From Thermoanaerobaculia bacterium (GTDB taxonomy: Bacteria > Acidobacteriota > Thermoanaerobaculia > Gp7-AA8): a DNA stretch of 64,000 nt. Below, one piece after another: positions 909-61,728 of the stretch. The stretch spans positions 15,371 through 79,370 of the forward strand of contig DASPZU010000015.1 of NCBI GenBank assembly GCA_035636095.1, written 5' to 3'. Made by a program: the position numbers and the translations under genes. Position 1 is the first letter of the stretch, and every line of letters starts with the position of its first letter. The notes beneath the pieces are model-generated. The model searched no databases, was not told the origin of the DNA, and saw only the letters and a list, made by a program, of their open reading frames with translations.

Positions 909-3698
909 ATGACCCGCGTAGCCCGACTCGTCGCCGCGTTTCTCCTCTTCTCTGCGATTTCCGAAGCCCGAGTTATTTCGTATGCGCCGTACACAAATCG
1001 CGCGTCGATCCCTGCCGTTCAGAATCGGCTCAATCGGCATTTCGTGCTGATCGAGCAAACCCCGGCGGGTTCGAGTTCGATCATTTCTCCACCTCCTCCG
1101 TGCTGCAATAACCCCACACCGTCGCAGCTCGTCCTCTACGACGCGCAGGGCCTGGAGGAGCCGCGCGTCATCTTTCCTGCCGATGGGTCGTCGTCTGCCA
1201 TCAGCAGCGCGACGGTTCGCGAAGAGGCAGGCGTTGTCTCCATCCTCATCCAGACCAGCGCCAATTTCCTCGGCGCCAACCCGACCAATCAGTTCATCTG
1301 GCTGCTGACGAATGACAGCGGCGCGAGCTGGATGAAGGTGGCGATTCCGACAACCCCCACCGTGACGACCCTGGCGGCCGACTTCGGCGGACCGTTCGCG
1401 CGGGGCCGCTACAGCAACGTACGGGTCGGGACACCTGAAGTGCCGTTCGTCGTCGGCAATTCGCTGGGTGTATTCGCCGTGTCGAATGTCGGCACGGTGA
1501 AGCAAATTTTCACTTCAAGCGTGATGTCGACAATTCCGCTGATCGGCTCCGATCGCGAAGGGCGACGATTCCTCGTCAACGCGCCCAACACGATTTACAC
1601 CGTCGATATCAACGGCAATCAAAGCGCAGTTGCGGCGAGGCCGGGCGCGGTTACGATCGAAGGTTGGATCACCCCCGACGGCGCCGCGTACCTCGAGCAG
1701 GCATTCAGTCCAGGCAATGTCGTGCTGTTTTACGCGAAGGACGGCAATATCACACCGGTCGCCGCCTCGTGGGATGGCCCGCCTAACGCGCAGCCACCGA
1801 TCAATTCTTCGTGGATATTTTTCGCGGTCCCGACCAGCGACTACTCCGGCGCGTGGGTCATGCGTCGCGGCGGCAATCGCCCGACGTCGCTTTTGCTGCA
1901 CACGCCGACTGCTGGACTCGTTCAGCAATGGCAGGACGTGTCGGCGCCGCAGGTCGAAGCGCTGCACGCCGCACCGTCAGGGACGAAGCTTCTGGTCCAG
2001 GTGCATCGCCCAAGACAGAGCGTCGATAACCTCCTGTTCAAAGATCCGGCGCTCGCGGTCTGGCCCATCGGCAGTCCTGCACCGCGCTCGTACGACGAAT
2101 TATTTCTGAGCGAGACATCGACCAAAGGGTTCGTGCATCTCGACGTCGACGCCATCGCGGGCGGTGCGACGTTCGTTTTCGATTCCGGCGTCCCGCAGCC
2201 GCTGGGCGGCGGCGTCATCATCTCGCCCGCGCCGCCGAGCGCCGGCGGAAGCGACGTCGTCCAGGAGTGGGGCGTCGTACGCGGCTCACTGCGGCAACAG
2301 CTCGTGCTTCCCGGCGTCGGCCGCACCCCTGGTGCTTTCGGCAGCAACTGGGCGACGGACGTCACGATCTACAACCCGTCCGACGGCCCGCTGCAGGTGA
2401 ACCTCAATTACGTGCCGAACGGCGGCGCTCCGGTTGCCGACGTCTTTGTCAATCTGTTGCTGCAGCCGCGTGAGATCCGCTCCATTCCCGACATCCTCGG
2501 CACCCTGTTCAACATCGACAACAGCAGCGGCGCGTTGTACATCTCTCCCGAGCAAGGCGGCGGCGTCAACATCACCAGCCGCACCTACAACAAGGCCGGC
2601 AACGGAACTTACGGCTTCACGATGAACGGGATCGATGTCTTCACCGCCGCCGGTCCACGCTTTCCGCTGACGTTCTCCGGCGCATTCGAAGGGGCGAACT
2701 TCCGCACCAACGTGATGCTGACCGACGTCTCCGGCCGCGGCACCGAAGTCTCCGCAACGGCCGCGAGCCCGAATGGATCGAGCGCAACGGAAGCGGTGAC
2801 GCTCACCGGCCCGAAGTCTGGGCAGACACAGATCAACGGCGTGGCGCCGCTGGTCGGACTGTCAACGACCGATACCGGCGCGCTCGTTTTGCGGCCTAAC
2901 AAGGGTGAGCTGCTGGCCTCCGTCTTCGTCGTCGACAATCGCACCAACGATCCGACCTTCTTCCCGCCCGATATTCCGGCCTCCGTCATGCGCGTCATTC
3001 CCGCCATCGGACACCTCGACGGCGCGAATGGATCGAAGTTCCGAAGCGATCTCTATCTCTTCAACAACTCTGCGCAGGTGAAGACGCTGACGCTCCAGGC
3101 GAAACTGTGGGACGTCTCGGAAAATCCGAGCACCCTGCAATTCACATTGCTCCCTTTCGAGGCCCGCGTGATCCGTGACGTGTTGATGACGGCCTTCGGC
3201 AAGACCGGCATCGCGCGATTGCGCTTCACAGCGCAAGGCACGACCAACGACACCAGCGTTCGCGTCACTTCGCGCACCTACACCATCGATCCCAGCGGCG
3301 GAACGTACGGCTTCCTCATGCCGCCGCTCAACAGCTTCCAATCCGGCGGCCCGGGTGACACGCTCGAGATTCTCGGCGCCACCCTCGATCCTCGTTTCCG
3401 CACCAACCTCGGCCTCGTTGATTTGACGGCCTTTCCGGGACCGAGGGCTGCGCGCGCGAAGATCGAGATCATCGACGACGCGGGCAAGGCGCTCGACAGT
3501 TTCGAGGTCAGCATCCTCTCCGCCGGCGGCATGCAGATCAACGATCTCTTCCACGGCCGCAGCCTGCCGGAGAGCGGCAAGCCGGTGCTGATTCGAGTGA
3601 CGACAATCGAGGGCATGATCGGTGCGTACGCCGCCTTCGTCGACAACGGCACCAATGACCCAGCCTACGTGGCGGCCAATTTAGCTGCGAAGGAGTAG
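909..3698 (+). CDS. Large secreted repeat-module protein (929 aa), function unknown
   Basis: ATG is preceded by AAGGAGG. Signal peptide MTRVARLVAAFLLFSAISEA. The composition is beta-rich (T/S/G/N). It contains at least two to three copies of a module carrying P-x-x-G-x-x-G-A-x-G-S-x-W/F ... NP ... Y-V-P. The module is paralogous to the partial gene at 63344. Confidence 0.6.
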   Translation: MTRVARLVAAFLLFSAISEARVISYAPYTNRASIPAVQNRLNRHFVLIEQTPAGSSSIISPPPPCCNNPTPSQLVLYDAQGLEEPRVIFPADGSSSAISSATVREEAGVVSILIQTSANFLGANPTNQFIWLLTNDSGASWMKVAIPTTPTVTTLAADFGGPFARGRYSNVRVGTPEVPFVVGNSLGVFAVSNVGTVKQIFTSSVMSTIPLIGSDREGRRFLVNAPNTIYTVDINGNQSAVAARPGAVTIEGWITPDGAAYLEQAFSPGNVVLFYAKDGNITPVAASWDGPPNAQPPINSSWIFFAVPTSDYSGAWVMRRGGNRPTSLLLHTPTAGLVQQWQDVSAPQVEALHAAPSGTKLLVQVHRPRQSVDNLLFKDPALAVWPIGSPAPRSYDELFLSETSTKGFVHLDVDAIAGGATFVFDSGVPQPLGGGVIISPAPPSAGGSDVVQEWGVVRGSLRQQLVLPGVGRTPGAFGSNWATDVTIYNPSDGPLQVNLNYVPNGGAPVADVFVNLLLQPREIRSIPDILGTLFNIDNSSGALYISPEQGGGVNITSRTYNKAGNGTYGFTMNGIDVFTAAGPRFPLTFSGAFEGANFRTNVMLTDVSGRGTEVSATAASPNGSSATEAVTLTGPKSGQTQINGVAPLVGLSTTDTGALVLRPNKGELLASVFVVDNRTNDPTFFPPDIPASVMRVIPAIGHLDGANGSKFRSDLYLFNNSAQVKTLTLQAKLWDVSENPSTLQFTLLPFEARVIRDVLMTAFGKTGIARLRFTAQGTTNDTSVRVTSRTYTIDPSGGTYGFLMPPLNSFQSGGPGDTLEILGATLDPRFRTNLGLVDLTAFPGPRAARAKIEIIDDAGKALDSFEVSILSAGGMQINDLFHGRSLPESGKPVLIRVTTIEGMIGAYAAFVDNGTNDPAYVAANLAAKE

Positions 3699-3758
3699 CC
3701 GCCCACGCGCCCGGTTGGGACGTTGGGATGTTGGGATGAGGGCTGTATGGCAGCCCTC
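3699..3758 (+). repeat. Left arm of a heptamer-array inverted repeat plus a terminator-like GC hairpin
   Basis: Leader CCCACGCGCCCGG is followed by (GTTGGGA)x3, then the hairpin GAGGGCTG-tatgg-CAGCCCTC and a U-rich tail. The mirror copy lies at 4143-4196. Confidence 0.6.
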
Positions 3759-4101
3759 ATCTTCGTCTGACGTAGCCGATGTATCCCTCCAGGGCGCGTC
3801 GCGATTCGTCGAGAGTTTCGAAGGGTTCTTTGCGCCGCAAGTAACCTACGCGTTCAGCGATGATCAGCTGCGTCTCGAGCTCGAACAATGATCCACGGGC
3901 CTGACTCAGAAATTGCCTTCGCTCACCCGAAGTCAGACGTCCTTCACCTTCAGCAATATTTGAGGGGATTGAGACCGCACTCTTTCGCACCTGATGCGTC
4001 AACCCGTAAATTTCTCGGCCGGGAAAAGCGTCAGTCACACGATAGATTTGCTCACAGAGAGTCATGGCGTGTTGCCACGCGACAAGGTCCTTGTAATTCA
4101 T
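3757..4101 (-). CDS. Four-helix-bundle protein (23S rRNA intervening-sequence protein / Avd-like family)
   Basis: 114 aa starting MNYKDLVAWQ...IYGLTHQVRKSAVSIPSNIAEGEGR...FLSQARGSLFELETQL, which is characteristic of the TIGR02436/PF05635-type four-helix bundle. ATG start at 4101. Confidence 0.8.
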   Translation of the reverse strand: MNYKDLVAWQHAMTLCEQIYRVTDAFPGREIYGLTHQVRKSAVSIPSNIAEGEGRLTSGERRQFLSQARGSLFELETQLIIAERVGYLRRKEPFETLDESRRALEGYIGYVRRR

Positions 4102-4142
4102 GAGTGATTGACGGAGCGACTACGGGAAGACGCGATCGCGCC

Positions 4143-4196
4143 TCGTGTGGGACACAGATCCTAACATCCTAACGTCCCAACCGGGTGGGTGGGGGG
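4143..4196 (-). repeat. Right arm (inverted copy) of the heptamer-array repeat
   Basis: On the minus strand it reads CCCACCCACCCGG + GTTGGGACGTTAGGATGTTAGGAT, about 27/29 identical to 3711-3739 in inverted orientation. Confidence 0.6.
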
Positions 4197-6104
4197 TCAG
4201 TGCGACCGTTCGTTCCCAATCCGCGTCTGGCTGAGCGTTTCCTGAAATTGCGGCGCGGGGACGGGGAAGCCGAAGTAGAAGCCCTGCACCTCGCGGCAGC
4301 CGTGCTCCCTCAGAAAATCGAGCTGCGGCTTGGTCTCGACTCCCTCCGCCACGACGCGCAGGTTGAGTCCCTGCGCGAGCTCGATGACCGACCGAACGAT
4401 GGCGGCATCTTCGAATCGGTCGGGCAGGTCCTCCACGAAATTGCGATCGATTTTGAGGCAGTCGATCGGGAAGCGTTTCAGGTAGCTCAGCGATGAGTGC
4501 CCCATGCCGAAATCGTCGATGGCGATGCTGATACCGGTGCGGCGCAAGCGCTCGAGTACCTTGAAAGTCAGATCGACATTCTCCATGGCCACGCTCTCGG
4601 TGATCTCGAGCTCGAGACACTCCGGTTCGATCCGCGCCTGCTTGATGGCCGACTCGATTCCGTCAACCAGCGAGAGCTCGCGGAACTGGCGCGCGGAAAG
4701 ATTCACGGCCACCCTGAAATCGGGGAAGCCGAGGTCCCGGAAGGCGCGGGCCTGATGAAGGGCGGTGCGCAGCACCCAATCGCCGATCAACACGATGAAT
4801 CCGCGCTCTTCGGCCACGGACAGGAAACTTCCCGGCGACATGAGCCCGCGCTCCGGATGCCGCCATCGCAGGAGTGCCTCCATGCCCACGATGCGATTGG
4901 TGCGGATGTCGATCTGGGGCTGGTAGTAGACCTCGAACTCGTTCCGCTCCATGGCCTGATGCAGACCGCTTTCGAGTGTCAGGCGCTCCTGCATCGAGCG
5001 GCTCAGCTCCTGGGTCGACATCTCGTAGCAATTGCGGCCGACCGCTTTCGCTCGATACATGGCATTGTCGGCGTTCTTGAGCAGCGTCTCGGCGTCCTCG
5101 CCGTCGTCGGGATAGACGGTGATGCCGACGCTGGCGGTGATGTAGAGGCGCTGGCCGTCGATGTCGATCGGCTCGGCGATGATCCGCAACACGCGCTGCG
5201 CCATCGATGCCGCGTCTTCTTTCTTTTCCAGCTCCTGAAGGACGATGGTGAACTCGTCGCCGCCGACGCGGGCCACGACATCGCCTTCGCGCACGCTGTT
5301 TTTCAAACGCGTTGCGATCTCGCGCAACAAACTGTCTCCGAGTGTGTGACCGAGGGAGTCGTTGACGACTTTGAAGTTATCGAGGTCGAGGAACAGCACC
5401 GCCACCGGGCGCCGCTTGCGCTGGGCAAGGGCAAGCGCGAGCGTCAGATGTTCCTGGAAGAGCCGGCGGTTGGCGAGTCCGGTGAGCGCGTCGTGATACG
5501 ACTGGTACTCCATCTGCTGCTCGGCGCGCTTTCGGTCGGTCAGATCGAGAATCTTGCCGATGACACCCGAGACGTTGCCCTTCGAATCAAACTGCGGGCG
5601 GTAGGAAGCGGTGATCCATCCCTGCCGGTCAGTTCCGGGAATCATGTACGAGGTCTCGGCGAGCGAAACTGTCTCGCCCATCAGGACGCGCGCCAGGATG
5701 TCGTCGATGGGCTGTTCGCCGAGGACGGGGAAGAAATCGCCGGCGCGTTTGCCCAGGACTTCCTCGGCGCGAAGACCGGTGAACTCTTCCATGAAGTGAT
5801 TCCAGACCTGACAACGCAGCTCCCGGTCGTAGACCACAATTCCCTCGGCGACATTCGACATGATGTCGGTAGCAAGGTCGGGATCATGGCGTACGCTCTC
5901 GGGGGTGGGGGCGGGCTCGGGCTCGCGCGATTCGCGGGGAGCGCTCCGCTCGCGCATCCGAACCAGCTGGGGCGTGCGTCCGGTGAGAGCGAGGGTGATC
6001 GATACGAAAGCGGAACCGACGACGATGCACACAGCCACCAACGCGGCGGAGATGGCTATGGCGAGGACAACTAGAGCGGCGGAAATCACTACCTCAGCCG
6101 GCAT
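4197..6104 (-). CDS. Membrane-anchored PAS-GGDEF-EAL protein (diguanylate cyclase/phosphodiesterase)
   Basis: N-terminal transmembrane segment. GGDEF (VARVGGDEF) and EAL (EALLRW) motifs are both intact. The track start at 6143 is TTG; the in-frame ATG (MPAEVV...) at 6104 is the alternative. Confidence 0.85.
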   Translation of the reverse strand: MPAEVVISAALVVLAIAISAALVAVCIVVGSAFVSITLALTGRTPQLVRMRERSAPRESREPEPAPTPESVRHDPDLATDIMSNVAEGIVVYDRELRCQVWNHFMEEFTGLRAEEVLGKRAGDFFPVLGEQPIDDILARVLMGETVSLAETSYMIPGTDRQGWITASYRPQFDSKGNVSGVIGKILDLTDRKRAEQQMEYQSYHDALTGLANRRLFQEHLTLALALAQRKRRPVAVLFLDLDNFKVVNDSLGHTLGDSLLREIATRLKNSVREGDVVARVGGDEFTIVLQELEKKEDAASMAQRVLRIIAEPIDIDGQRLYITASVGITVYPDDGEDAETLLKNADNAMYRAKAVGRNCYEMSTQELSRSMQERLTLESGLHQAMERNEFEVYYQPQIDIRTNRIVGMEALLRWRHPERGLMSPGSFLSVAEERGFIVLIGDWVLRTALHQARAFRDLGFPDFRVAVNLSARQFRELSLVDGIESAIKQARIEPECLELEITESVAMENVDLTFKVLERLRRTGISIAIDDFGMGHSSLSYLKRFPIDCLKIDRNFVEDLPDRFEDAAIVRSVIELAQGLNLRVVAEGVETKPQLDFLREHGCREVQGFYFGFPVPAPQFQETLSQTRIGNERSH

Positions 6105-6256
6105 CCGCAAAAATAGTGTCGTCGACTCGCGAAAATGTTGCAAGAAAAAACTTTAGGGTAATTATCGACAGATTTCAGTCTCAAGATCATGAGCTATTGC
6201 GATTCGCGCCCGTTTCTGATCAGCAGGAGCTCGCGACCAGGTAGGGGCTCACGCGG

Positions 6257-12429: not shown

Positions 12430-12462
12430 AAGGACTGGGGACTGAGGACTGAGAGTCAGTCG
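12430..12462 (-). repeat. Heptamer-array hairpin (GGACTGR x3 / GAGTCAGTC) overlapping the stop codon of the DUF4097 gene
   Basis: aaGGACTGGGGACTGAGGACTGAGAGTCAGTCgtc. It lies between two co-directional genes, so it is likely an intrinsic terminator. Confidence 0.5.
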
Positions 12463-14191: not shown

Positions 14192-14195
14192 GTTT

Positions 14196-14267
14196 GGTAA
14201 GGCCGGTAAGGCGGGTAAGTAGGGTGGTAGCCCCGTCTTACCGGCCTTACGTCCTTACTGTCCTTAC
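14196..14267 (+). repeat. Hairpin built from a 9-nt tandem unit (GGTAAGGCS x3-4 / inverse CTTACNGKC) between convergent genes
   Basis: GGTAAGGCCGGTAAGGCGGGTAAGTAGGGTGGTAGccccGTCTTACCGGCCTTACGTCCTTACTGTCCTTA. It spans both stop codons. Confidence 0.55.
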
Positions 14268-30400: not shown

Positions 30401-30466
30401 GGTTGCTGGGTTACTGGGTTGCTAGGTTGCTAAAGGGTTGCTCAGCAACCGAGCAACCCAGCAACT
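30401..30466 (-). repeat. Heptamer-array hairpin (GGTTGCT x4 / AGCAACC x3) between the crotonase stop and the AKR start
   Basis: GGTTGCTGGGTTACTGGGTTGCTAGGTTGCTaaaGGGTTGCTCAGCAACCGAGCAACCCAGCAACtattttc. Confidence 0.6.
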
Positions 30467-32374: not shown

Positions 32375-32442
32375 AGTCCTGAGTCCTGAGTGCGAGTCCT
32401 GAGTTTATATGGCTCAGTCTGCTCAGGACTCAGCACTCAGGA
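32375..32442 (+). repeat. Heptamer-array hairpin (AGTCCTG x3 / CTCAGGA x3) in the divergent pfk/glsB promoter region
   Basis: AGTCCTGAGTCCTGAGTGCGAGTCCTGAGtttatatggCTCAGTCTGCTCAGGACTCAGCACTCAGGA. It shares the same heptamer as the hairpin at 58894-58967. Confidence 0.6.
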
Positions 32443-32510
32443 ATCGGCACTGTGCTTGCTCATCCATTAGCCCGTCAGCATCACGCTGACGAAAGCTTGG
32501 AGGAAAGAGC

Positions 32511-41881: not shown

Positions 41882-42477
41882 ACCAGCACTCCGCCCCGCC
41901 CTTCTGCAATCAGCTCGCGGCCGTGGTAGTGAAATTCGTTGAGCGCATCCAACAGCAGGAGGCGGCGCTCGATGCGCTCTTCGTCCGCGCGGGTGTAGAC
42001 GGTGGCCTCGAGAAAAGCGGTGCCGTCGCTTCGCAGCTCCACCGACGGAAGAAACGACGCCACCAGGGCGCGCACGATCTGCGCCGACTGCGTTCGGCGC
42101 AGCGCGGCATCGTATTCGTCGGATGACGCGATGACGGTCGTCATGCGCCATGACGCCGACCCGATGATCTCCGAGATGACCAGCCAGTATTCGAAGATCG
42201 CGGATGGCGTGCGATCGACCTCGAAATATTTGAAGAGCGGCTCGTCAGGAACGACGAAGGGTACGCTGAGGTCGCCGTCGATCTGGTACTGAACACGTCC
42301 GTCCAGATGAACTCCCTCCGCATATTCGAGGAGCGCCGATGCGAAGATCTCGAGATGCGCCGTGGGCGGAGTCTCGCCTGGAACAAAGGTGTCCCGAAAT
42401 TGCGCGGCGGCAAGCTCGTGTGCGCGTGCGATGCGATCGCGGATGCGGGTTACTTCGACTATCGGAATGGTCGTCAT
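41878..42477 (-). CDS. Hypothetical protein (about 199 aa)
   Basis: ATG at 42477 (MTTIPIVEV...); the track start at 42501 is TTG. No motif. Confidence 0.4.
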   Translation of the reverse strand: MTTIPIVEVTRIRDRIARAHELAAAQFRDTFVPGETPPTAHLEIFASALLEYAEGVHLDGRVQYQIDGDLSVPFVVPDEPLFKYFEVDRTPSAIFEYWLVISEIIGSASWRMTTVIASSDEYDAALRRTQSAQIVRALVASFLPSVELRSDGTAFLEATVYTRADEERIERRLLLLDALNEFHYHGRELIAEGRGGVLV

Positions 42478-42489
42478 CCTGAGCGTAAC

Positions 42490-42535
42490 GAAGGATCTCA
42501 ATATGCGAACAGCGTGGCAACCTGAGATCCTTCGC
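42490..42535 (-). terminator. Stem-loop (11-bp stem) between dsbD and the hypothetical gene
   Basis: GAAGGATCTCA-atatgcgaacagcgtggcaacc-TGAGATCCTTC. It has no clear U-tract. Confidence 0.4.
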
Positions 42536-42559
42536 CGTCTGCGCGGCTCGGGATGACGA

Positions 42560-44263
42560 TTACCGCACTTGCTTGAGGCGCGCCACGAACGCCTGCGGAT
42601 TTTCGAATCCGGTCAGCCGCTGCGCGTTCAGTTCGTGTCCGCCTGAATCGAGGAAGACGATCGTTGGCACACCGACGATCTTGTATTGCTCGGTGAGTTT
42701 TTGCACGGCCGGATCCTCGTTGTTGGTCAGATTGGCTTTCACGCGAACGAATCGGTCGAGCTCCGTGGCCACTGAGCGATCGCTGAATGTTTTTTCGTCC
42801 AGCTCTTTGCAGGGCAGGCACCAGTCAGCATAGAAGTCGACGATGACGGGCTTGCCGGCATTTGTGATGGTCTTCGTGTCATATTTCTGCCATTCGACGC
42901 TCGCGCCCTTCGTACGCGGCACGACAAATGCCGCGCCCAAGATCAGCAACAGACTGGCACAGGCCAGCCGAAGGACGCGACCGCCGCGCTGTCCGACGCC
43001 GCGGCTGAAGAACAAAAACAGCGCGCCGATGAGAAGACTCGCGGCCACGCCCCAGCGAAACGCGCCGTCTCCGATCAGCGGCCGCAGGAAGTAGAACGCC
43101 ATGGCGACGAGAACGAAACCCATCGCTTTCTTGACTTGCACCATCCATTCGCCGGGACGCGGCATGGCGTTGAGCGCGACCAGATATGGCGACCCGAGGC
43201 CAAGGGCGAGAGAGCCGAACATGACGAATCCGAGCAGGGGCTTTCCGATCCCGGCCACCAGCGTGAAAAGCGCGACCACAACCGGACCGACGCACGGCGC
43301 CGCGACGATGCCCACAAACAGCCCCATCACCGCCGCCCCCACCAACCCGGCCCGCCCCCCCGACCGCCGCCCGATGAACTGCGGCACGGTCATCTCCCAC
43401 GCCCCAAACATCGACGACGCCAGCACCAGCATCAAAAGCGCGAATCCAATCAGCACGGCCGGATGTTGCAGCCACGATCCGAACAGCTTTCCGGACAGCG
43501 CTGCCGCCACGCCTAACGCGGAATACATCACCACCAGGCCCGCGACATAAAAAGCGGAGAGCGCCAGGCGTCGCGATCGGCGGCCGTCGCTCTGCATCGC
43601 GAAGAATCCGAGCGTGATCGGAATCATCGGGAAGACGCATGGCGTCAGGTTCAGCGCCAGCCCGCCCACAAAAAGGATCAACAGCGTCAGCGGAAGGCCG
43701 TGCGATAGAAACGCGCTGGTGACCTTGTCTTTGGGGGCGGCGGAGAGGGGCATGAAGCTGGCGGGTGGAGCGCCGGCGGCCTCGCCGGTCCGCGCCGCCG
43801 CGGTCGGCGGCGCTCCACTCAGCGAAATCGCGAGCGTCGCGTTTCGTGGCGGAAGGCAGACATTGTCGTTGCACGCCTGATAGTGCAGCTTTGCGGTGAT
43901 GTTTTGAGCAGTGGTTTTGGCGGTGAAGGGAATCGAAATCGTTCCTTCATAAACCGCCAGCTTTGTTCCGCCGCTGAACGTGAAGCTCTTGATCAGGTGG
44001 GGCGGGAAGTCGGCCTTCAAAAGGTCGGCGCTCTCGAACGACAGCGTGGTCGGGATCGCGAAGGATTCGAGCGGATGCGCCGAGTTGACGTGCCATCCCT
44101 TCTCGATTGCGGCGGTAATCACGCCTCTCACCTGATCGCCGCTCTTCTGGGTGATGGCGGCGGTCAGCGTGACGAGATCCTTTTTTGGAATCGGAGATTC
44201 GAATTGCGCCGGAAGGGCGGCGGCCAGAAAAGAAGCGACGGCTGCGAAGAGTGGAGCGCGCAC
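42560..44263 (-). CDS. dsbD: Thiol:disulfide interchange protein DsbD
   Basis: Signal peptide, N-terminal domain, transmembrane core with CVFPMIP, and a C-terminal thioredoxin domain WCLPCKELDEKTF. GTG start. Confidence 0.85.
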   Translation of the reverse strand: MRAPLFAAVASFLAAALPAQFESPIPKKDLVTLTAAITQKSGDQVRGVITAAIEKGWHVNSAHPLESFAIPTTLSFESADLLKADFPPHLIKSFTFSGGTKLAVYEGTISIPFTAKTTAQNITAKLHYQACNDNVCLPPRNATLAISLSGAPPTAAARTGEAAGAPPASFMPLSAAPKDKVTSAFLSHGLPLTLLILFVGGLALNLTPCVFPMIPITLGFFAMQSDGRRSRRLALSAFYVAGLVVMYSALGVAAALSGKLFGSWLQHPAVLIGFALLMLVLASSMFGAWEMTVPQFIGRRSGGRAGLVGAAVMGLFVGIVAAPCVGPVVVALFTLVAGIGKPLLGFVMFGSLALGLGSPYLVALNAMPRPGEWMVQVKKAMGFVLVAMAFYFLRPLIGDGAFRWGVAASLLIGALFLFFSRGVGQRGGRVLRLACASLLLILGAAFVVPRTKGASVEWQKYDTKTITNAGKPVIVDFYADWCLPCKELDEKTFSDRSVATELDRFVRVKANLTNNEDPAVQKLTEQYKIVGVPTIVFLDSGGHELNAQRLTGFENPQAFVARLKQVR

Positions 44264-45945: not shown

Positions 45946-48048
45946 TCAGCGGACGGTGATCGTTACAGAATCGCGGCGGCCTTCGTCGTCGACGGCGGTG
46001 ATCGTGTGCCTGCCCCCGCGCAGAGACCACGCGTCATCTGTGTGACGGCCATCGACCATCCACGTTACGGGAGCGGTGGCTTTGAGCTGAAGCGCCTGGA
46101 ACTCGGCACGAAGGGTTGGATCGATCCAGTAAGTCGCGCCCTCGGCGGGATTCAAGATGTGAAGGACAGGCGAGCGACGGGCTGAAGCCGGACCCACATC
46201 CCAGGCGCGATATTCAGCAGGCAATTCAACGCGCTGCGAGTGATGCCACGAACAGAATTCGACGCGATTTGAGGCGGGCATCCACTCGCTTTCGACGGCG
46301 GGACACTCCATCGACGGACGATGGCCGGAGAGCGCGCAAATCGGCCGCCGCTCGAGATCGGCAGGACGATCGACGATCGTTCCCCGCCCGCCCCCCACTC
46401 TCTTCACGGCCGCCAGCATCACGTCGTGAAAAATCGGCGCGGCGCCGGTGATGCCGCTCGAGTTGCGCAACTCGCTGCGATCGAAATTCCCCACCCACAC
46501 GCCGACAGTGATTTCGCGCGTGTACCCGACCGTCCAGTTGTCGCGATAGGCCTGCGAAGTTCCGGTCTTCACGGCGACCTGGAATGGGAAATCGAGACTG
46601 CCGCCCGATCCGAAGATGTACTCGCGGGCGTGTTCATCGCTGAGGATGTCGGTGATCCAGAACGCGGTGCGCTGCGACATCACGCCATCACCGCCGCGCG
46701 CGAAGATGGCATACGCCGTCACCAACTGCTCCAGGGTCACCTCGGCATCGCCGAGCGTCAGGCCGACTCCGTAGTAGTCGGCGGTGTGCGTGAGATCACG
46801 GAAGCCGGCGTGGCGAAGGAATCGCAGCAGCGACTCGGGACCGATTTTGGCGAGCGTCGCCACTGCCGGCACGTTTTCCGACCCGGCAAGCGCGACGCGC
46901 GCGCGCAGTGGTCCGCGAAATTTTCCATCGTAGTTGCGGGGCGTGTAGATGACGCCCGGCTCAGCAGTCGCGAAATGCGACGGCACGTCCGCGATGACCG
47001 TGGCGGGAGTCAAGCCTTGCTCGAAAGCGAGCGCGTACGTCAACGGCTTCAGAGTCGATCCAGGCTGGCGCAGCGTCGTCACGCCATCGATCGCGCCGCC
47101 GAAATTTTCACCGAAGTAATCGCCCGAGCCTTCCCACGCCAGCCATTCGCGCGTCCGATTGTCGAGGACCGCGATCGCGACGCTGTGCGCGCCGTGGCGC
47201 AGCAGATCGGAGCGATGCGCCGCGATGATGCCGTGGATTTCGCGCTGGAGATTTGCATCGAGAGAGGTGCGAATGATCGCCGCCGAGGTCGACGGCGCTC
47301 CACTGAGAATCCGCGCGACAAAATGCGGCGCGATCATCGGATGGCGTCCGCGGTCGAACGACAAACGCTCCGCGCGAGCGGTGCGGTAGTCGGGCTCGGA
47401 GATCATCTTCAGCTCACGCAGGCGGCGGAGGATCAAGCGTTGACGCTGTAGCGCGAGCCTGGGCGTTCCGGGTCGTCGCGGCAAAGCCGCCAGATATGCC
47501 GCCTGCGCGATGGTGAGTTGATCAGGCTGGCAGCCGAAGTAGCGATCGCTCGCGCGCGCGATTCCCACGGTCTGCTGGCCATAAGGGGCCAGATTCAGGT
47601 ACAACGCCAGAATCTCGGCCTTGGAGTGACGATGCTCGAGTCTGAGCGCCGTGATCGCCTCGCGAACTTTCGAGCGGACGCTGCGCGGCGCGCCCGGAAC
47701 CATGAGCTTCGCGACTTGCTGCGTGATCGTCGATCCCCCTTCGACGACGCGCACGTGCAGGAGATTGTGGAAGGCCGCTCGCGCGGTGCCGATCGGATCG
47801 ATGCCGATGTGATGGTAAAAGCGGTGATCTTCCGCGGCCATGGCGGCCTTGGCGATGTTGTCGGGAATCGCCGTGATCCAGGTGCTGCGCGTCCCATTTG
47901 CCGACAGCGGCTCGGAAAGAATGATGCCGTTGCGATCGACGATGGTCGGCGTCGTCTCGGGTCTGATCTCTGGAATCGGCCCAATTCGCATCCAAATAGC
48001 GAGACTGATGACCGACAACAGACAACCGACAACCGACAACTTTTTCAA
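45946..48048 (-). CDS. pbpC: Penicillin-binding protein 1C (glycosyltransferase + transpeptidase)
   Basis: GT51 motifs AEDHRFYHHIGID and GGSTITQQVAKL, with a transpeptidase domain. TTG start overlaps the A2M stop (TTGA). The signal peptide is encoded by (CCGACAA)n. Confidence 0.85.
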   Translation of the reverse strand: MKKLSVVGCLLSVISLAIWMRIGPIPEIRPETTPTIVDRNGIILSEPLSANGTRSTWITAIPDNIAKAAMAAEDHRFYHHIGIDPIGTARAAFHNLLHVRVVEGGSTITQQVAKLMVPGAPRSVRSKVREAITALRLEHRHSKAEILALYLNLAPYGQQTVGIARASDRYFGCQPDQLTIAQAAYLAALPRRPGTPRLALQRQRLILRRLRELKMISEPDYRTARAERLSFDRGRHPMIAPHFVARILSGAPSTSAAIIRTSLDANLQREIHGIIAAHRSDLLRHGAHSVAIAVLDNRTREWLAWEGSGDYFGENFGGAIDGVTTLRQPGSTLKPLTYALAFEQGLTPATVIADVPSHFATAEPGVIYTPRNYDGKFRGPLRARVALAGSENVPAVATLAKIGPESLLRFLRHAGFRDLTHTADYYGVGLTLGDAEVTLEQLVTAYAIFARGGDGVMSQRTAFWITDILSDEHAREYIFGSGGSLDFPFQVAVKTGTSQAYRDNWTVGYTREITVGVWVGNFDRSELRNSSGITGAAPIFHDVMLAAVKRVGGGRGTIVDRPADLERRPICALSGHRPSMECPAVESEWMPASNRVEFCSWHHSQRVELPAEYRAWDVGPASARRSPVLHILNPAEGATYWIDPTLRAEFQALQLKATAPVTWMVDGRHTDDAWSLRGGRHTITAVDDEGRRDSVTITVR

Positions 48049-57280: not shown

Positions 57281-58119
57281 CGCAGTGGACGCATCCGCTG
57301 CTGCAAGAGCCAGCGCGCCATTCCGGCGTCGGCGTAGGCAAGATCCCACGCATCGTGTCCAATGCCCGGATACTCGGTGTATGTCACCGTTCCACCGCCG
57401 CGCCGAAGAGCTTCGACCATGTTGCGCGACTCGCGCACGGGAACTTCATCGTCCCTGGTTCCGTGAAACGCCCACACCGGGGTCGTGCCGATTGCCTGTG
57501 CCAATGCCGAATATGGATCGGGCGCACCGACGATGCGCGCGATGTCCGGCGGCAGCTCGACCGGAAACGGATCGGCGGGATCGCGTGCGACTTCGCCGCA
57601 GATCGGAACCACAGCCGCGAATCTCCGGCGATGGCGCGCCATGTACCACGCACCCGTCCCGCCCATCGAGATGCCGGTGAGGTACACCCGTCGCCGATCG
57701 CCATGGAATTCGCGAATCGAGCTTTCGAGCGCTGCCATCACCTGCGATTCCATGTCGCCGTACCACTCCTGCCCGAAGCCGCATTGCGGAAAGATCACCA
57801 CCGCTTTGTACCGGTCGCCGAAATGCTCGAGTGCCGGAGCGAGACCTAACGCCAGTTGCCTTTCGTTGTCATCGCCCCGCTCATTGCTGCCGTGCAGAAA
57901 GAGAATCACCGGCCAGTGATGCACCTTCGTGTAATGCGGCGGCAGCCAGACGCGATAGCGATACTGATGATCGCCGAGGGAGACGCTGCGCTCGAGAAAA
58001 CGAGACTCGCGGGCGCAGGACAGGAGAAGGCAGAAGGCAAAAAGCAGAAGGCAGAAGTAAGAAGATTGCTTTGCGGTTACTTCTGCCTTCTGCCTTCTGC
58101 TTTCTGCCTTTTCGATCAC
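57277..58119 (-). CDS. Alpha/beta-hydrolase esterase (phospholipase/carboxylesterase or PHB-depolymerase-like), probable lipoprotein
   Basis: ILFLHGSNERGDD...GISMGGTGAW...GHDAW gives a Ser-Asp-His triad. The only start compatible with the upstream GT2 stop is GTG at 58119 (GTGA overlap). That gives a signal peptide ...YFCLLLFAFCLLLSC (lipobox) encoded by the GAAGGCA/TGCCTTC hairpin. The track N-terminus of about 130 aa is spurious. Confidence 0.65.
   Translation of the reverse strand: MIEKAESRRQKAEVTAKQSSYFCLLLFAFCLLLSCARESRFLERSVSLGDHQYRYRVWLPPHYTKVHHWPVILFLHGSNERGDDNERQLALGLAPALEHFGDRYKAVVIFPQCGFGQEWYGDMESQVMAALESSIREFHGDRRRVYLTGISMGGTGAWYMARHRRRFAAVVPICGEVARDPADPFPVELPPDIARIVGAPDPYSALAQAIGTTPVWAFHGTRDDEVPVRESRNMVEALRRGGGTVTYTEYPGIGHDAWDLAYADAGMARWLLQQRMRPLR
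58026..58110 (-). repeat. Heptamer-array hairpin (GAAGGCA x4 / TGCCTTC x4) inside the 5' end of the esterase CDS
   Basis: GAAGGCAGAAGGCAAAAAGCAGAAGGCAGAAGtaagaagattgctttgcggttaCTTCTGCCTTCTGCCTTCTGCTTTCTGCCTT. Confidence 0.65.
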
Positions 58120-58893: not shown

Positions 58894-58967
58894 GGTCCTG
58901 AGTGCTGAGTCCTGAGTCCTGAGTCCTGAGCGGGCGAGTGTGTCTCAGGACTCAGAACTCAGGACTC
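58894..58967 (+). repeat. Heptamer-array hairpin (GTCCTGA x5 / TCAGGAC x3) in a divergent promoter region, with a CCCACCCGCCCGG leader
   Basis: cgcCCACCCGCCCGGTCCTGAGTGCTGAGTCCTGAGTCCTGAGTCCTGAGcgggcgagtgtgtCTCAGGACTCAGAACTCAGGACTC. Confidence 0.65.
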
Positions 58968-61067: not shown

Positions 61068-61728
61068 TCGCGTTGAAGTCGGCGCGACCATCGCCCTCCA
61101 CTCGGAGGAGCGACATCACGCGCGCGTGTTGCGAGTGCGCGAAGGGGAAGAAGTCGAGATCTTCGATTCGCAAGGCAGAAATTTTGTTGCGCGTCTCGAC
61201 GATCCGGATTCGATCGCGATACTTCGCGAATCTGAGAGCCGAGAACTGAGAACCGAGATCCGACTCGCGATGTCGATCATTCAGCTCGAGAAATTCGAGC
61301 TCGTTCTGCAAAAAGCGACCGAGTTAGGCGTGGCGTCCTTCATTCCGCTGATCACCGACCGCATGGAAGTGCGCATCGAGCGTTTGCGCGGAAGAGAAGA
61401 TCGCTGGAAAAAAATCGTGCTGGAAGCGGTCAAGCAATCGGGACGCTCAAAAATCCCGGTGATCGAAACGCCAACGGAATTCGACGACGCCATCAAACGT
61501 GAAGGGACAAAGATCATTTTCGATGCCGACACACCGCCAGCAACCGAGCAACCGAGCAACCCAGCAACCCTTTTCATCGGTCCCGAAGGCGGCTTTTCCG
61601 AACGCGAATTACAGCTCGCGCGCGCATCCGGTGCAGCGTTGGAACAACTCGGGCCGCGACGGTTGCGCGCCGAAACTGCCGCCATCGTAGCGGTCGCGCT
61701 GGTCGCTGCGAGAAGTGGCGACATTTGA
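61042..61728 (+). CDS. rsmE: 16S rRNA (uracil1498-N3)-methyltransferase RsmE
   Basis: MKHRFFVP..., LFIGPEGGFSERE and LGPRRLRAETA. It carries an in-frame heptamer-array insert (PATEQPSNPAT) just before IGPEGG. Confidence 0.85.
   Translation: MKHRFFVPDRVEVGATIALHSEERHHARVLRVREGEEVEIFDSQGRNFVARLDDPDSIAILRESESRELRTEIRLAMSIIQLEKFELVLQKATELGVASFIPLITDRMEVRIERLRGREDRWKKIVLEAVKQSGRSKIPVIETPTEFDDAIKREGTKIIFDADTPPATEQPSNPATLFIGPEGGFSERELQLARASGAALEQLGPRRLRAETAAIVAVALVAARSGDI

Follow-up and report, generated by a model that had tools for sequence, protein, structure and literature searches.

We put the chances at about even that the interval at positions 3699-4196 of a 64-kb stretch of a Thermoanaerobaculia MAG (the window, 64,000 nt in full) is a copy of a widespread element with two parts that corresponds, in an mRNA setting, to the open reading frame (ORF)-bearing intervening sequences (IVSs) of 23S rRNA. 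The first part would be a repeat-array hairpin, formed by two inverted tandem arrays of a 7-8-nt unit, and the second, at the hairpin apex, a promoter-less module in which a leader precedes a PF05635 ORF whose stop codon lies at a GC hairpin. In the proposed mechanism, read-through from a GGDEF-EAL gene would transcribe the cassette, and the arms would pair in the RNA, with a stem of ~39 bp closing the insert into one large stem-loop and insulating the host message. By analogy with the rRNA IVSs, RNase III probably cuts this stem, which would free a discrete mRNA, and the protein probably binds array hairpins, both its own and ORF-less ones of matching unit. The module may spread among hairpins of matching unit, or the hairpins may derive from cassettes via loss of the module. 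The features of the locus are as follows.

909-3698, plus strand: left host gene, encoding a 929-aa protein without a Pfam domain and with known orthologues; its TAG stop (3696-3698) abuts the left arm.
3699-3713, unstranded: left half of the outer GC-rich stem, CCGCCCACGCGCCCG, pairing with 4182-4196.
3714-3738, unstranded: left array, 3 x GTTGGGAY with an 8-nt period; the 3' (downstream) arm relative to the minus-strand gene.
3735-3761, minus strand: GC hairpin, GATGAGGGCTG-5 nt-CAGCCCTCATC, with a perfect 11-bp stem (3735-3745 / 3751-3761).
3757-4101, minus strand: four-helix-bundle gene, 114 aa, PF05635 / TIGR02436 (S23p / IVP / Avd-like), from a profile search.
4102-4157, minus strand: leader of 56 nt, with the conserved motif CCCACACGAGG at 4141-4151 (minus strand), then the palindrome CGCGATCGCG at 4131-4140.
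4158-4181, unstranded: right array, ATCCTAAC ATCCTAAC GTCCCAAC; the 5' (upstream) arm relative to the gene.
4182-4196, unstranded: right half of the outer GC-rich stem, CGGGTGGGTGGGGGG, pairing with 3699-3713.
4197-6143, minus strand: right host gene, encoding a PAS-GGDEF-EAL protein; it lies upstream of the bundle gene, shares its strand, and ends with a stop codon (4197-4199) directly against the arm.

The arms were located by an inverted-repeat search of 3400-4500, at 3699-3737 and 4158-4196; they are 39 nt each, are spaced 420 nt apart, and are complementary at 34/39 positions (87%). Each is made up of an outer, non-repeated, GC-rich segment of 15 nt and three inner copies of the 8-nt GTTGGGAY, the TRF period of 8 making the unit a heptamer plus one variable base. 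The right array departs from perfect complementarity by two G-to-A differences. The local inverted-repeat score at the cassette was 53, and 1,940 random placements in the window, all scored with the identical geometry of 200 nt either side of a 345-nt gap, scored 18 at the median and never above 30. The sequence GTTGGGANGTTGGGA occurs four times in the window (0.31 expected), each time inside one of the two arms, and a pattern search found no further GTTGGGA or GTTGGGAY array elsewhere in the 64 kb; a role in trans of such arrays cannot be seen from the window alone. The stop codons of both convergent neighbours directly adjoin the arms with zero gap. The TGA stop of the bundle gene lies within the stem of the 3735-3761 GC hairpin, related cassettes have an equivalent hairpin of different sequence after the stop codon, and the small leader palindrome CGCGATCGCG has a counterpart in relatives that keeps its pairing although its sequence differs. 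Across the window, nothing in Rfam, the rRNA families among them, reached the gathering threshold. The locus is 100% identical in six public contigs of the same population and is therefore not an assembly quirk of one record. The layout given in the initial annotation, a 114-aa gene of the 23S-IVS-protein / Avd-like family between two near-complementary arms, is borne out by these scores and by the profile matches below.

The product of the bundle gene matched PF05635 with E=1.6e-32 (112.3 bits; cutoff, 33.8) and TIGR02436 with E=1.3e-30 (105.8 bits; cutoff, 24). PF05635 was the sole domain match in the cassette protein, and the cassette has no transposase. Comparison with 2GSC using phmmer gave E=1.4e-25. 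The AlphaFold monomer model has four helices at a pLDDT of 96 and was matched by Foldseek to 2GSC (TM 0.92 at 46% identity), 2RLD (TM about 0.8), and, at 12-14% identity, to Avd 4DWL (TM 0.79) and the DGR RNP 8UBE. On this model, the protein is predicted to be an up-down four-helix bundle like 2GSC and 2RLD. Both of these structures have five chains, and the Coxiella S23p structure 2GSC is a homopentameric toroid (PMC4990558); by homology, the window protein would be a toroidal pentamer as well. With a dN/dS of 0.09 against the L007 orthologue and 0.06-0.16 overall, it is under strong purifying selection. PADLOC matched the protein to no defence system, and tblastn found no second copy in the window. 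The S23p / IVP family is very large, with >5,000 members among the matches listed, and to our knowledge no function has been established for it in the time since rRNA intervening sequences were first reported.

The array-gene-array architecture is family-wide. Inverted tandem arrays of a 7-8-nt unit flank 60-72% of 126 non-redundant relatives, which span more than ten phyla, and 1.6% of other genes; 28-40% of the relatives have no clear bracket. An inverted-repeat score of at least 36 was reached at 76/126 of these homologues and at 8/502 further genes predicted in those loci (Fisher p=4e-54). A survey of genome contigs from Acidobacteriota, Desulfobacterota, Planctomycetota, Bacteroidota, Chloroflexota, Ignavibacteriota, Nitrospirota, Gemmatimonadota, Proteobacteria, and Clostridia found a bracket at 42 of the 74 genes and at none of 370 random placements, and PF05635 genes on finished cyanobacterial plasmids are likewise bracketed by arrays. 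Candidate carriers in culture are Nostoc punctiforme (pNPUN01, NPUN_RS34290), Anabaena sp. 90 (ANA_RS23230), Mesorhizobium sp. ISC25 (near 3.42 Mb of CP135441.1), and Flavobacterium columnare (gmk-nadD spacer). The same flank screen also picked up true RAYT genes with REP flanks; the RAYTs are distinct genes in related loci. Our literature search found no description of a general association of the PF05635 gene with inverted arrays; in the portions of the literature available to us, only the Coxiella heptamers and a figure legend that names '23S rRNA IVP' as one of the CRISPR-associated domains bore on it. The ORF runs in the same direction as the host transcription unit, and the spacer that the element fills follows immediately on a host stop codon. 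A median of 2 nt separates the upstream stop codon from the arm, and many cassettes lie inside operons, 14 nt ahead of the next start codon. In tandem spacers, where the counts of sense and antisense ORFs are the valid orientation test, 29 ORFs are sense and 3 are antisense (p=2.6e-6); the remaining cassette spacers comprise 12 convergent and 1 divergent.

The period of the arrays is 7 nt in 68/86 loci and 8 nt in 15/86, with a median of 4.9 repeats, or 36 nt, per arm (repeat number, 2.6 to 25) and Watson-Crick pairs at 88.7% of aligned arm positions. Array polarity is fixed and runs from the outside in (AGTNNNN), the 5' arm unit carrying AGT in 45/68 loci and ACT in 2/68. Since an inverted repeat is alike on both strands, the polarity is a property of the hairpin itself and is silent on which strand matters; AGT-first polarity as a coupling of gene orientation to the hairpin was considered and rejected for that reason. 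The two arms co-vary. At the site between M13 peptidase and ELFV dehydrogenase genes, where the alignment places L008-L020 together, the unit varies among GTTRGGAT, GACGGGAT, GTAAGGAY, and GGTAAGGNC in both arms together, and arms of divergent unit pair at 21-24 of 24 positions with their own partner versus 15-21 with other unit types. The unit tracks protein phylogeny whatever the genomic context. Arm similarity climbs with protein identity from 0.17 to 0.57-0.66, also in pairs without shared flanks according to a tblastx flag that under-called shared context in short contigs. Units differ between the loci of one genome, and several unit families coexist per genome.

ORF-less and ORF-bearing forms occupy one site in related genomes. 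The initial annotation had suggested a search for an empty site and a comparison of synteny in relatives, and such a site exists: in the spacer separating the 929-aa gene from the GGDEF-EAL gene, L177 carries a 77-nt GTTGGGAY hairpin that is uninterrupted and ORF-less, L168 and L169 have an ORF-less GACGGGAT hairpin in the same orthologous spacer, and, on a tree of the adjacent gene, the ORF-bearing state is limited to the sister pair of the window and L007. The gene module (3739-4157) therefore sits at the apex of an array hairpin, which belongs to the same family of elements as their ORF-less form and is not a host structure unrelated to them. The earlier proposal that a cassette landed in the loop of a pre-existing hairpin is thus supported as to the apex position and not supported as to a chance hit on an unrelated hairpin, given the bracket counts, the agreement of unit with protein, and the unit that ORF-less hairpins usually have in common with an adjacent cassette. 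Nine of the 14 ORF-less hairpins near a cassette are in the top 5 of 86 in similarity to the arm of that cassette, and within the window, ORF-less array hairpins fill spacers after stop codons. Parsimony suggests a direction of change at the spacer (module gained, or lost elsewhere), and its bearing on the ancestral state is weakened because hairpin types turn over very fast, with L177 and L179 being 4.7% different yet having hairpins of different type.

The closest homologues of the window protein, in L008 and L009 (76-77% aa), are at the M13 peptidase / ELFV dehydrogenase site, and their nucleotide similarity to the window covers array-gene-array alone (3714-4181). The outer 15-bp GC stem is site-specific, being common to the orthologous locus L007 and absent from cassettes at other sites, and a G-rich segment homologous to 4182-4196 is also found at the ORF-less site of L168. 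The outer stem does not belong to the travelling unit. A second idea of the initial annotation, that 40-bp repeats are the termini of a mobile unit carrying the gene, is in part correct as well, the array-gene-array unit recurring at a second site. No direct repeat suggestive of a target-site duplication is visible outside 3699 / 4196 or outside the array edges.

A scan of 3400-4500 found no promoter-like or terminator-like site on either strand and no sigma-70-like promoter in the leader, and the arms have no U-tract of the kind that follows the GC stem of an intrinsic terminator. For a 516-nt RNA of the locus, the closing stem was present in both the MFE and the centroid folds (coding strand, z=-4.65); the antisense RNA gave a better fold still (z=-6.5). 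Coding-strand G.U and A.C mismatches, a weak strand test, numbered 113 and 94 when pooled (p=0.21); the per-locus sign test gave 38 vs 17 (p=0.006) and was the sole significant form of the strand test. Both mismatches of the cassette are of the A.C type when read on the coding strand and of the G.U type on the other strand. A DNA-level role of the arrays fits equally well as RNA pairing.

The alternative built on such a role is a mobile element acting at the DNA level, in which the arrays serve as terminal repeats or as hairpin or cruciform signals. A recombinase, acting in trans or brought in by the bundle protein, would read them on DNA. The element would resemble REPs with RAYTs or MITEs with their parent transposons, the ORF-less hairpins being the non-autonomous copies, and the RAYT genes with REP flanks recovered by our screen have the same geometry. 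One array-gene-array unit is found at two unrelated sites, neighbouring ORF-less hairpins have matching units, hairpin types are quickly replaced at one spacer, and the outside-in polarity is typical of terminal repeats. We nevertheless consider this alternative unlikely: nuclease or recombinase chemistry is not known for a four-helix bundle of 114 aa, the element edges are without a visible duplication, the units vary between loci of one genome, unlike transposon ends, and a sense bias of 29 vs 3 is unexpected from a purely DNA-level process.

An account that extends the simplest reading of the initial annotation would be that an ordinary host hairpin, for instance a bidirectional terminator, was already present and that an independent mobile module landed in its loop, the arrays being functionally unrelated to the gene. 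The intact GTTGGGAY hairpin of L177 would then be the empty site, the restriction of the module to the clade of the window and L007 would make a single gain most parsimonious, and the ORF-less array hairpins of the window fill post-stop spacers as terminators would. This account is improbable in view of the bracketing across phyla (60-72% of homologues vs 1.6% of other genes), the unit that follows protein phylogeny across differing contexts, the adjacent ORF-less hairpins that carry the unit of the cassette, and the fixed array polarity; terminators would also sit poorly with arms that have no U-tract and with the many intra-operon cassettes placed 14 nt before the next start codon.

Regulation in cis alone would have the 5' array as an mRNA operator through which the pentamer regulates its own synthesis, one repeat per protomer, with the 3' array just sequestering the operator. 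TRAP, which binds triplet repeats, is the model for the one-repeat-per-protomer reading. A median of ~5 repeats per arm in a family with pentameric relatives agrees with this, as does the recurrence of the conserved trinucleotide AGT with variable spacers. The Avd pentamer touches an 11-bp RNA stem-loop with all five protomers and reads bases flipped out of the stem-loop via equivalent residues of different protomers (bioRxiv 10.1101/2023.10.23.563531). The repeat number spans 2.6 to 25, however, and the ORF-less hairpins, the placement at stop codons, and the rRNA IVSs are left unexplained, which makes regulation in cis alone quite improbable. Coincidence of two independent, similar terminators, one for each convergent gene, which the initial annotation had held out as a possible outcome, agrees with the stop codon next to each arm and is refuted with near certainty by the score of 53 against a control maximum of 30 (n=1,940) and by the same arrangement in the orthologue L007 and dozens of unrelated loci.

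Beyond the two-part element itself, we raise as a tentative possibility that PF05635 pentamers and repeat-array hairpins form a genome-wide partnership like that of RAYT and REP, with a 7-8-nt unit for each paralogue. If so, the protein would recognise approximately one repeat per protomer, both in its own cassette and in dispersed, post-stop, ORF-less hairpins, and would act at the RNA level (processing, stability, insulation) or aid the spread of the hairpins; the rRNA IVSs, the cyanobacterial STRR heptamers, and the TAACTGA repeats would belong to a single system with a so far overlooked protein component. Tandem heptamers of the STRR kind have served as fingerprinting markers and are without explanation. 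The layout in more than ten phyla is rule-like (co-varying inverted arrays, a sense ORF, a post-stop position, and ORF-less twins), and the puzzles of S23p / IVP function and of tandem heptamers become one testable hypothesis. That hypothesis would predict a specific nucleic-acid ligand for the bundle protein; it would account for the appearance of the rRNA IVSs as the same cassette landed in an rRNA helix, and array-bracketed cassettes would explain why array finders tie the PF05635 domain to CRISPR loci. In genome annotation, it draws attention to a class of insertions by which operons are split with no evident damage.

Among known systems, MITEs and small TIR transposons have inverted ends with outside-in polarity and ORF-less derivatives, as here, whereas the cassette has no transposase, no target-site duplication was seen, and its ends are not conserved among copies. 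REP/RAYT (REPINs) are alike in having a small gene flanked by an inverted repeat. The REP repeat is also dispersed without the gene after stop codons in the same genome, and the array unit may be so too, 9 of 14 neighbouring ORF-less hairpins at other loci matching the unit of the cassette and the 64-kb window having no second GTTGGGA array. REPINs differ in that the window protein is a predicted helical bundle and not a Y1 HUH transposase, and that the cassette repeats are tandem arrays with a unit drifting between lineages and several unit families per genome. Avd of the diversity-generating retroelements has the same fold and is an RNA-stem-loop-binding pentamer, but the window protein is only 12-14% identical to it, and no RT domain, which a DGR would have, was found in the called genes within 10 kb on either side (L001/L002). 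The STRR units of heterocystous cyanobacteria fit AGTNNNN once rotated or complemented. The same is true of the TAACTGA repeats of Beggiatoaceae, cyanobacteria, and Bacteroidetes (PMC4679880). Both are intergenic tandem 7-mers, and cyanobacterial PF05635 genes are bracketed by such arrays; they have been described, in contrast, as direct arrays with no linked gene, and inverted pairing or a link to PF05635 was not reported in the literature searched. The arrays of the cassette have a period of 8 (7 in 68/86 related cassettes), and their host is a Thermoanaerobaculia MAG, not a cyanobacterium. ORF-bearing 23S rRNA IVSs are hosted by Leptospira, Coxiella burnetii, Brucella, and Xanthomonas. In Coxiella, the ORF is decaying and the S23p protein appears not to be made, whereas the window protein is under strong purifying selection; the cassette also differs in that its host is an mRNA spacer between protein genes rather than an rRNA helix, and in that its stem is mostly tandem 8-mers. 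The Coxiella IVS has a 28-bp terminal stem that is cut by RNase III and 2-4 tandem GACAGAT heptamers upstream of an S23p ORF that is sense to the rRNA transcript (PMC4990558). The cassette is like the 23S rRNA IVSs in its S23p / PF05635 ORF, sense to the host transcript, in its terminal inverted repeats closing a long stem, and, in the case of Coxiella, in the tandem heptamers at the 5' end.

Two genes converge on the cassette, and its two arms directly adjoin their stop codons. By inverted-repeat search, the arms are 39 nt each, 87% complementary, and separated by 420 nt, and each combines a GC-rich outer segment of 15 nt with the 8-nt unit GTTGGGAY in three copies (TRF period 8). The double-unit pattern occurs four times in the window (0.31 expected), always within the arms, and the inverted-repeat score was 53 at the cassette versus a maximum of 30 for 1,940 random window placements of equal geometry. 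The initial annotation had described a bundle gene lying with only its own GC hairpin between separated inverted arms; this was confirmed, with the addition of a 56-nt leader.

909-3698, plus strand: left neighbour gene, 929-aa protein without a Pfam domain (gene call, Pfam)
3699-3737: left arm
3735-3761: perfect 11-bp GC hairpin with the stop codon of the ORF inside (repeat search)
3757-4101, minus strand: four-helix-bundle ORF, 114 aa (gene call, PF05635/TIGR02436)
Between the ORF and the right arm: leader of the ORF, 56 nt
4158-4196: right arm
4197-6143, minus strand: right neighbour gene, PAS-GGDEF-EAL protein (gene call, Pfam)

Six public contigs were identical across the cassette region, and the source population is Thermoanaerobaculia (Acidobacteriota) from soil. 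The 929-aa neighbour has >650 homologues and is conserved across Thermoanaerobaculia, with tandem paralogues in some relatives (public loci L176 and L177).

Profile searches placed the 114-aa protein clearly in PF05635/TIGR02436. The predicted structure is a four-helix bundle (pLDDT 96) with a TM of 0.92 to the Xanthomonas S23p structure 2GSC and 0.79 to Avd 4DWL, in agreement with the earlier Avd/IVS-protein-like assignment. For seven orthologous pairs, dN/dS of the PF05635 gene was in the purifying range (0.06-0.16). The S23p structure 2GSC is a toroidal pentamer (PMC4990558), and by homology the 114-aa protein would be one too.

The survey of relatives (46-87% identity) covered 80 loci each from metagenomes and genomes, and every gene received the score of the best inverted repeat joining its 200-nt upstream and 200-nt downstream flanks. 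In the genome set, 53/74 genes scored >=30 versus 2/370 random placements in the same loci, and 42/74 versus 0/370 scored >=36. With both sets pooled, 76/126 non-redundant homologues scored >=36, compared with 8/502 other predicted genes (p=4e-54). Among those eight were a further PF05635 gene, one GxxExxY (PDDEXK_3) gene, one GIY-YIG gene, and two REP-flanked RAYT transposases, and recovery of the RAYT genes is a positive control for the scoring. Nearly all bracketing repeats are tandem arrays, with a period of 7 in 68/86 loci and 8 in 15/86 and a median arm of 4.9 repeats (36 nt). Extremely long arms occur in L144 (~2650-3330; 180 nt, ~25 ACGGTGG heptamers) and L136 (~2850-3500; 144 nt). Cassette hosts span at least 10 phyla, including isolates and a complete Mesorhizobium chromosome. 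On finished plasmids of Nostoc punctiforme and Calothrix, GGGTGTR-array cassettes lie directly 3' of an integrase stop codon, and on Anabaena sp. 90 plasmid pANA02 (L175, NC_019429.1 42831-46121), a type I-D CRISPR-Cas operon carries an AGGTGAC-array cassette between its cas6 and cas4 genes. The IVP gene of Nostoc sp. PCC 7120 plasmid alpha (L172, NC_003276.1 2276-5530) has a downstream array only (CTCTGCC units) and adjoins a transposase gene upstream; an insertion sequence seems to have disrupted this cassette. Other small genes near cassettes are also bracketed by inverted repeats (L085 270-740; L104 1908-2294; L151 1235-1615; L093 4627-5112; L108 1239-1727), namely, GxxExxY/PDDEXK_3 nucleases, a GIY-YIG nuclease between hairpin-element copies, and RAYT transposases with REP flanks, which suggests that small genes bracketed by hairpins form a guild.

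The architecture follows consistent rules. From its outer end inwards (5' to 3'), the arm unit contains AGT in 45/68 heptamer loci and ACT in 2/68, with the consensus A-G-T-n-G-k-C; since an inverted repeat is identical on both strands, this outside-in polarity is intrinsic to the hairpin and not linked to gene orientation. Based on heuristic ORF calls, the median distance from the neighbour's stop codon to the outer edge of the 5' arm is 2 nt; for the 3' arm, the median is 14 nt upstream of the next gene's start where that gene is co-oriented and 2 nt inside its stop where it is convergent. Of the ORFs in tandem spacers, 29 have the sense orientation relative to the host genes and 3 the antisense orientation (p=2.6e-6), and non-tandem spacers are convergent in 12 cases versus divergent in 1. 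A stop triplet is present in 35/86 upstream-arm units (TAG 25, TGA 5, TAA 5), which with a 7-nt period gives stops in all three frames within three repeats; some upstream ORFs terminate inside the array. Loci L008-L020 all share one site, flanked by an M13 peptidase gene (C-terminus ..CKVW*) and a convergent gene for an ELFV dehydrogenase. Different lineages have different units there (GTTRGGAT, GACGGGAT, GTAAGGAY, GGTAAGGNC), the two arms having changed in concert; arms with divergent units pair at 21-24/24 positions with their own partner versus 15-21/24 with other unit types. Arms become more alike with increasing protein identity: their normalised similarity is 0.17 at 40-50% identity and 0.57-0.66 above 70%, and it is equally high in pairs without shared flanks. 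In the window clade, the order is 5' arm, CCCACACGAGG with a small hairpin, ~20 nt, ORF, GC hairpin at the stop codon, and 3' arm. The conserved leader motif CCCACACGAGG lies ~50 nt before the start codon and is followed by a 6- to 8-bp mini-hairpin that differs in sequence by locus with pairing kept; together they span window 4131-4151 (minus strand) and are at the matching position in seven relatives (L007, L008, L009, L010, L015, L016, L017).

The spacer was compared across relatives through orthologues of the 929-aa gene.

Spacer content in the window and related loci
Window and L007 (sisters): GTTGGGAY arrays and gene
L177: intact ORF-less GTTGGGAY hairpin, 77 nt
L168 and L169: ORF-less GACGGGAT hairpin, apex similar to the window's GC hairpin
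L167, L178, and L179: different hairpin, GTCATCCTGAGC...GAAGGATCTC
L171: plain GC hairpin

L007 has ~87% nucleotide identity to the window with the same arrays, and homology between the window and L167 ends exactly at 3698 and 4195. The uninterrupted GTTGGGA hairpin that the initial annotation envisaged as an empty site is thus found in L177. Only the window and L007 bear the ORF in a neighbour-joining tree built from the adjacent 1.4 kb, which favours a single gain at this spacer. L177 and L179 are only 4.7% apart in the adjacent gene, yet one has GTTGGGAY arrays and the other a GTCATCCTGAGC-type hairpin; turnover between the two stops is therefore very fast, which weakens deep parsimony. The interpretation in the initial annotation is partly supported, and so is its alternative that the 40-bp repeats are mobile-element ends. 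The closest homologues of the window gene, L008 and L009 (76-77% aa), lie at the M13 peptidase/dehydrogenase site, and their similarity is limited to 3714-4181 (array-gene-array), so either gene and arrays move as one, or transfer of the gene is restricted to hairpins that have like units. Outside this shared stretch, the GC stem at the ends of the arms belongs to the site.

ORF-less array hairpins are common in carrier DNA, with 27 in the 853 kb surveyed. For 9/14 of those beside a cassette, similarity to its arm ranked in the top 5 of 86, with one of the 14 (L147) to be discounted for overlapping the cassette's own 5' arm. The window itself holds the following, the hairpins having units other than GTTGGGAY.

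14195-14267: ORF-less array hairpin
30401-30465: ORF-less array hairpin
32375-32451: ORF-less array hairpin
58025-58110: ORF-less array hairpin
58895-58967: ORF-less array hairpin
12431-12454: single array
48011-48042: single array
61241-61263: single array
61536-61571: single array

Units of these arrays include GGTAAGGNN, GGTTGCTG, AGTCCTG (at three places), and AGAAGGC; GGTTGCT recurs at two places, and GGTAAGGNC is also the arm unit of the L016 and L017 IVP cassettes. Two of the hairpins exactly fill the spacer between adjacent genes. A second dispersed hairpin family, GTCATCCTGAGC...GAAGGATCTC / GAGATCCTTC...GCTCAGGATGAC, was found at window 42476-42560, L167 6796-6860, L178 4336-4426, and L179 3420-3512 and in L093, L097, L134, and L143; in L167, L178, and L179, it holds the spacer that carries the cassette in the window.

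Outside the arm there is neither space for a promoter nor, by a scan of window 3400-4500, a promoter signal. Since the ORF is also sense to the host unit, read-through from the GGDEF-EAL gene is the most likely source of cassette transcription. Arm pairing is predicted in this RNA, the closing stem being present in both MFE and centroid folds (z=-4.65). In the Coxiella IVS, whose S23p ORF runs in the direction of rRNA transcription, RNase III cuts the 28-bp terminal stem where tandem GACAGAT heptamers begin (PMC4990558). A comparable stem would shield the host message and yield a discrete small mRNA. In the DGR relative Avd, all five protomers contact an 11-bp RNA stem-loop (bioRxiv 10.1101/2023.10.23.563531); with a pentamer by homology, it is a reasonable guess that the protein binds the array hairpin, with ~5 repeats per arm. 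The arrays may instead act at the DNA level: the G.U versus A.C mismatch test for the RNA strand is weak, both mismatches between the window arms read as A.C in coding-strand orientation, and antisense RNA folds no worse than coding-strand RNA.

In the literature searched, which included few subscription journals, no account was found that generally connects PF05635 genes with inverted tandem arrays; an earlier description may exist. A figure legend lists '23S rRNA IVP' among CRISPR-array-associated domains (PMC10910872), which cassettes in cas operons, together with array finders detecting these repeats, may explain. This legend and the Coxiella heptamers are the nearest known precedents. The window element is regarded as an extension of the IVS-type cassette to mRNA spacers, following defined rules, and the finding is of above-average interest because two old puzzles are given one shared, testable mechanism.

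A REP/RAYT pair was rejected because the cassette carries the wrong enzyme, a classical transposon for want of a transposase and of a target duplication at the cassette, and a DGR because no RT lies within 10 kb of it. A terminator scan (window 3400-4500) excluded an intrinsic terminator. The layout is that of ORF-bearing 23S rRNA intervening sequences, but the cassette is not in rRNA (Rfam, whole window), which is the defining IVS feature. The genome-level logic resembles that of REP/RAYT, and the arrays resemble the STRR and TAACTGA repeats in sequence style.
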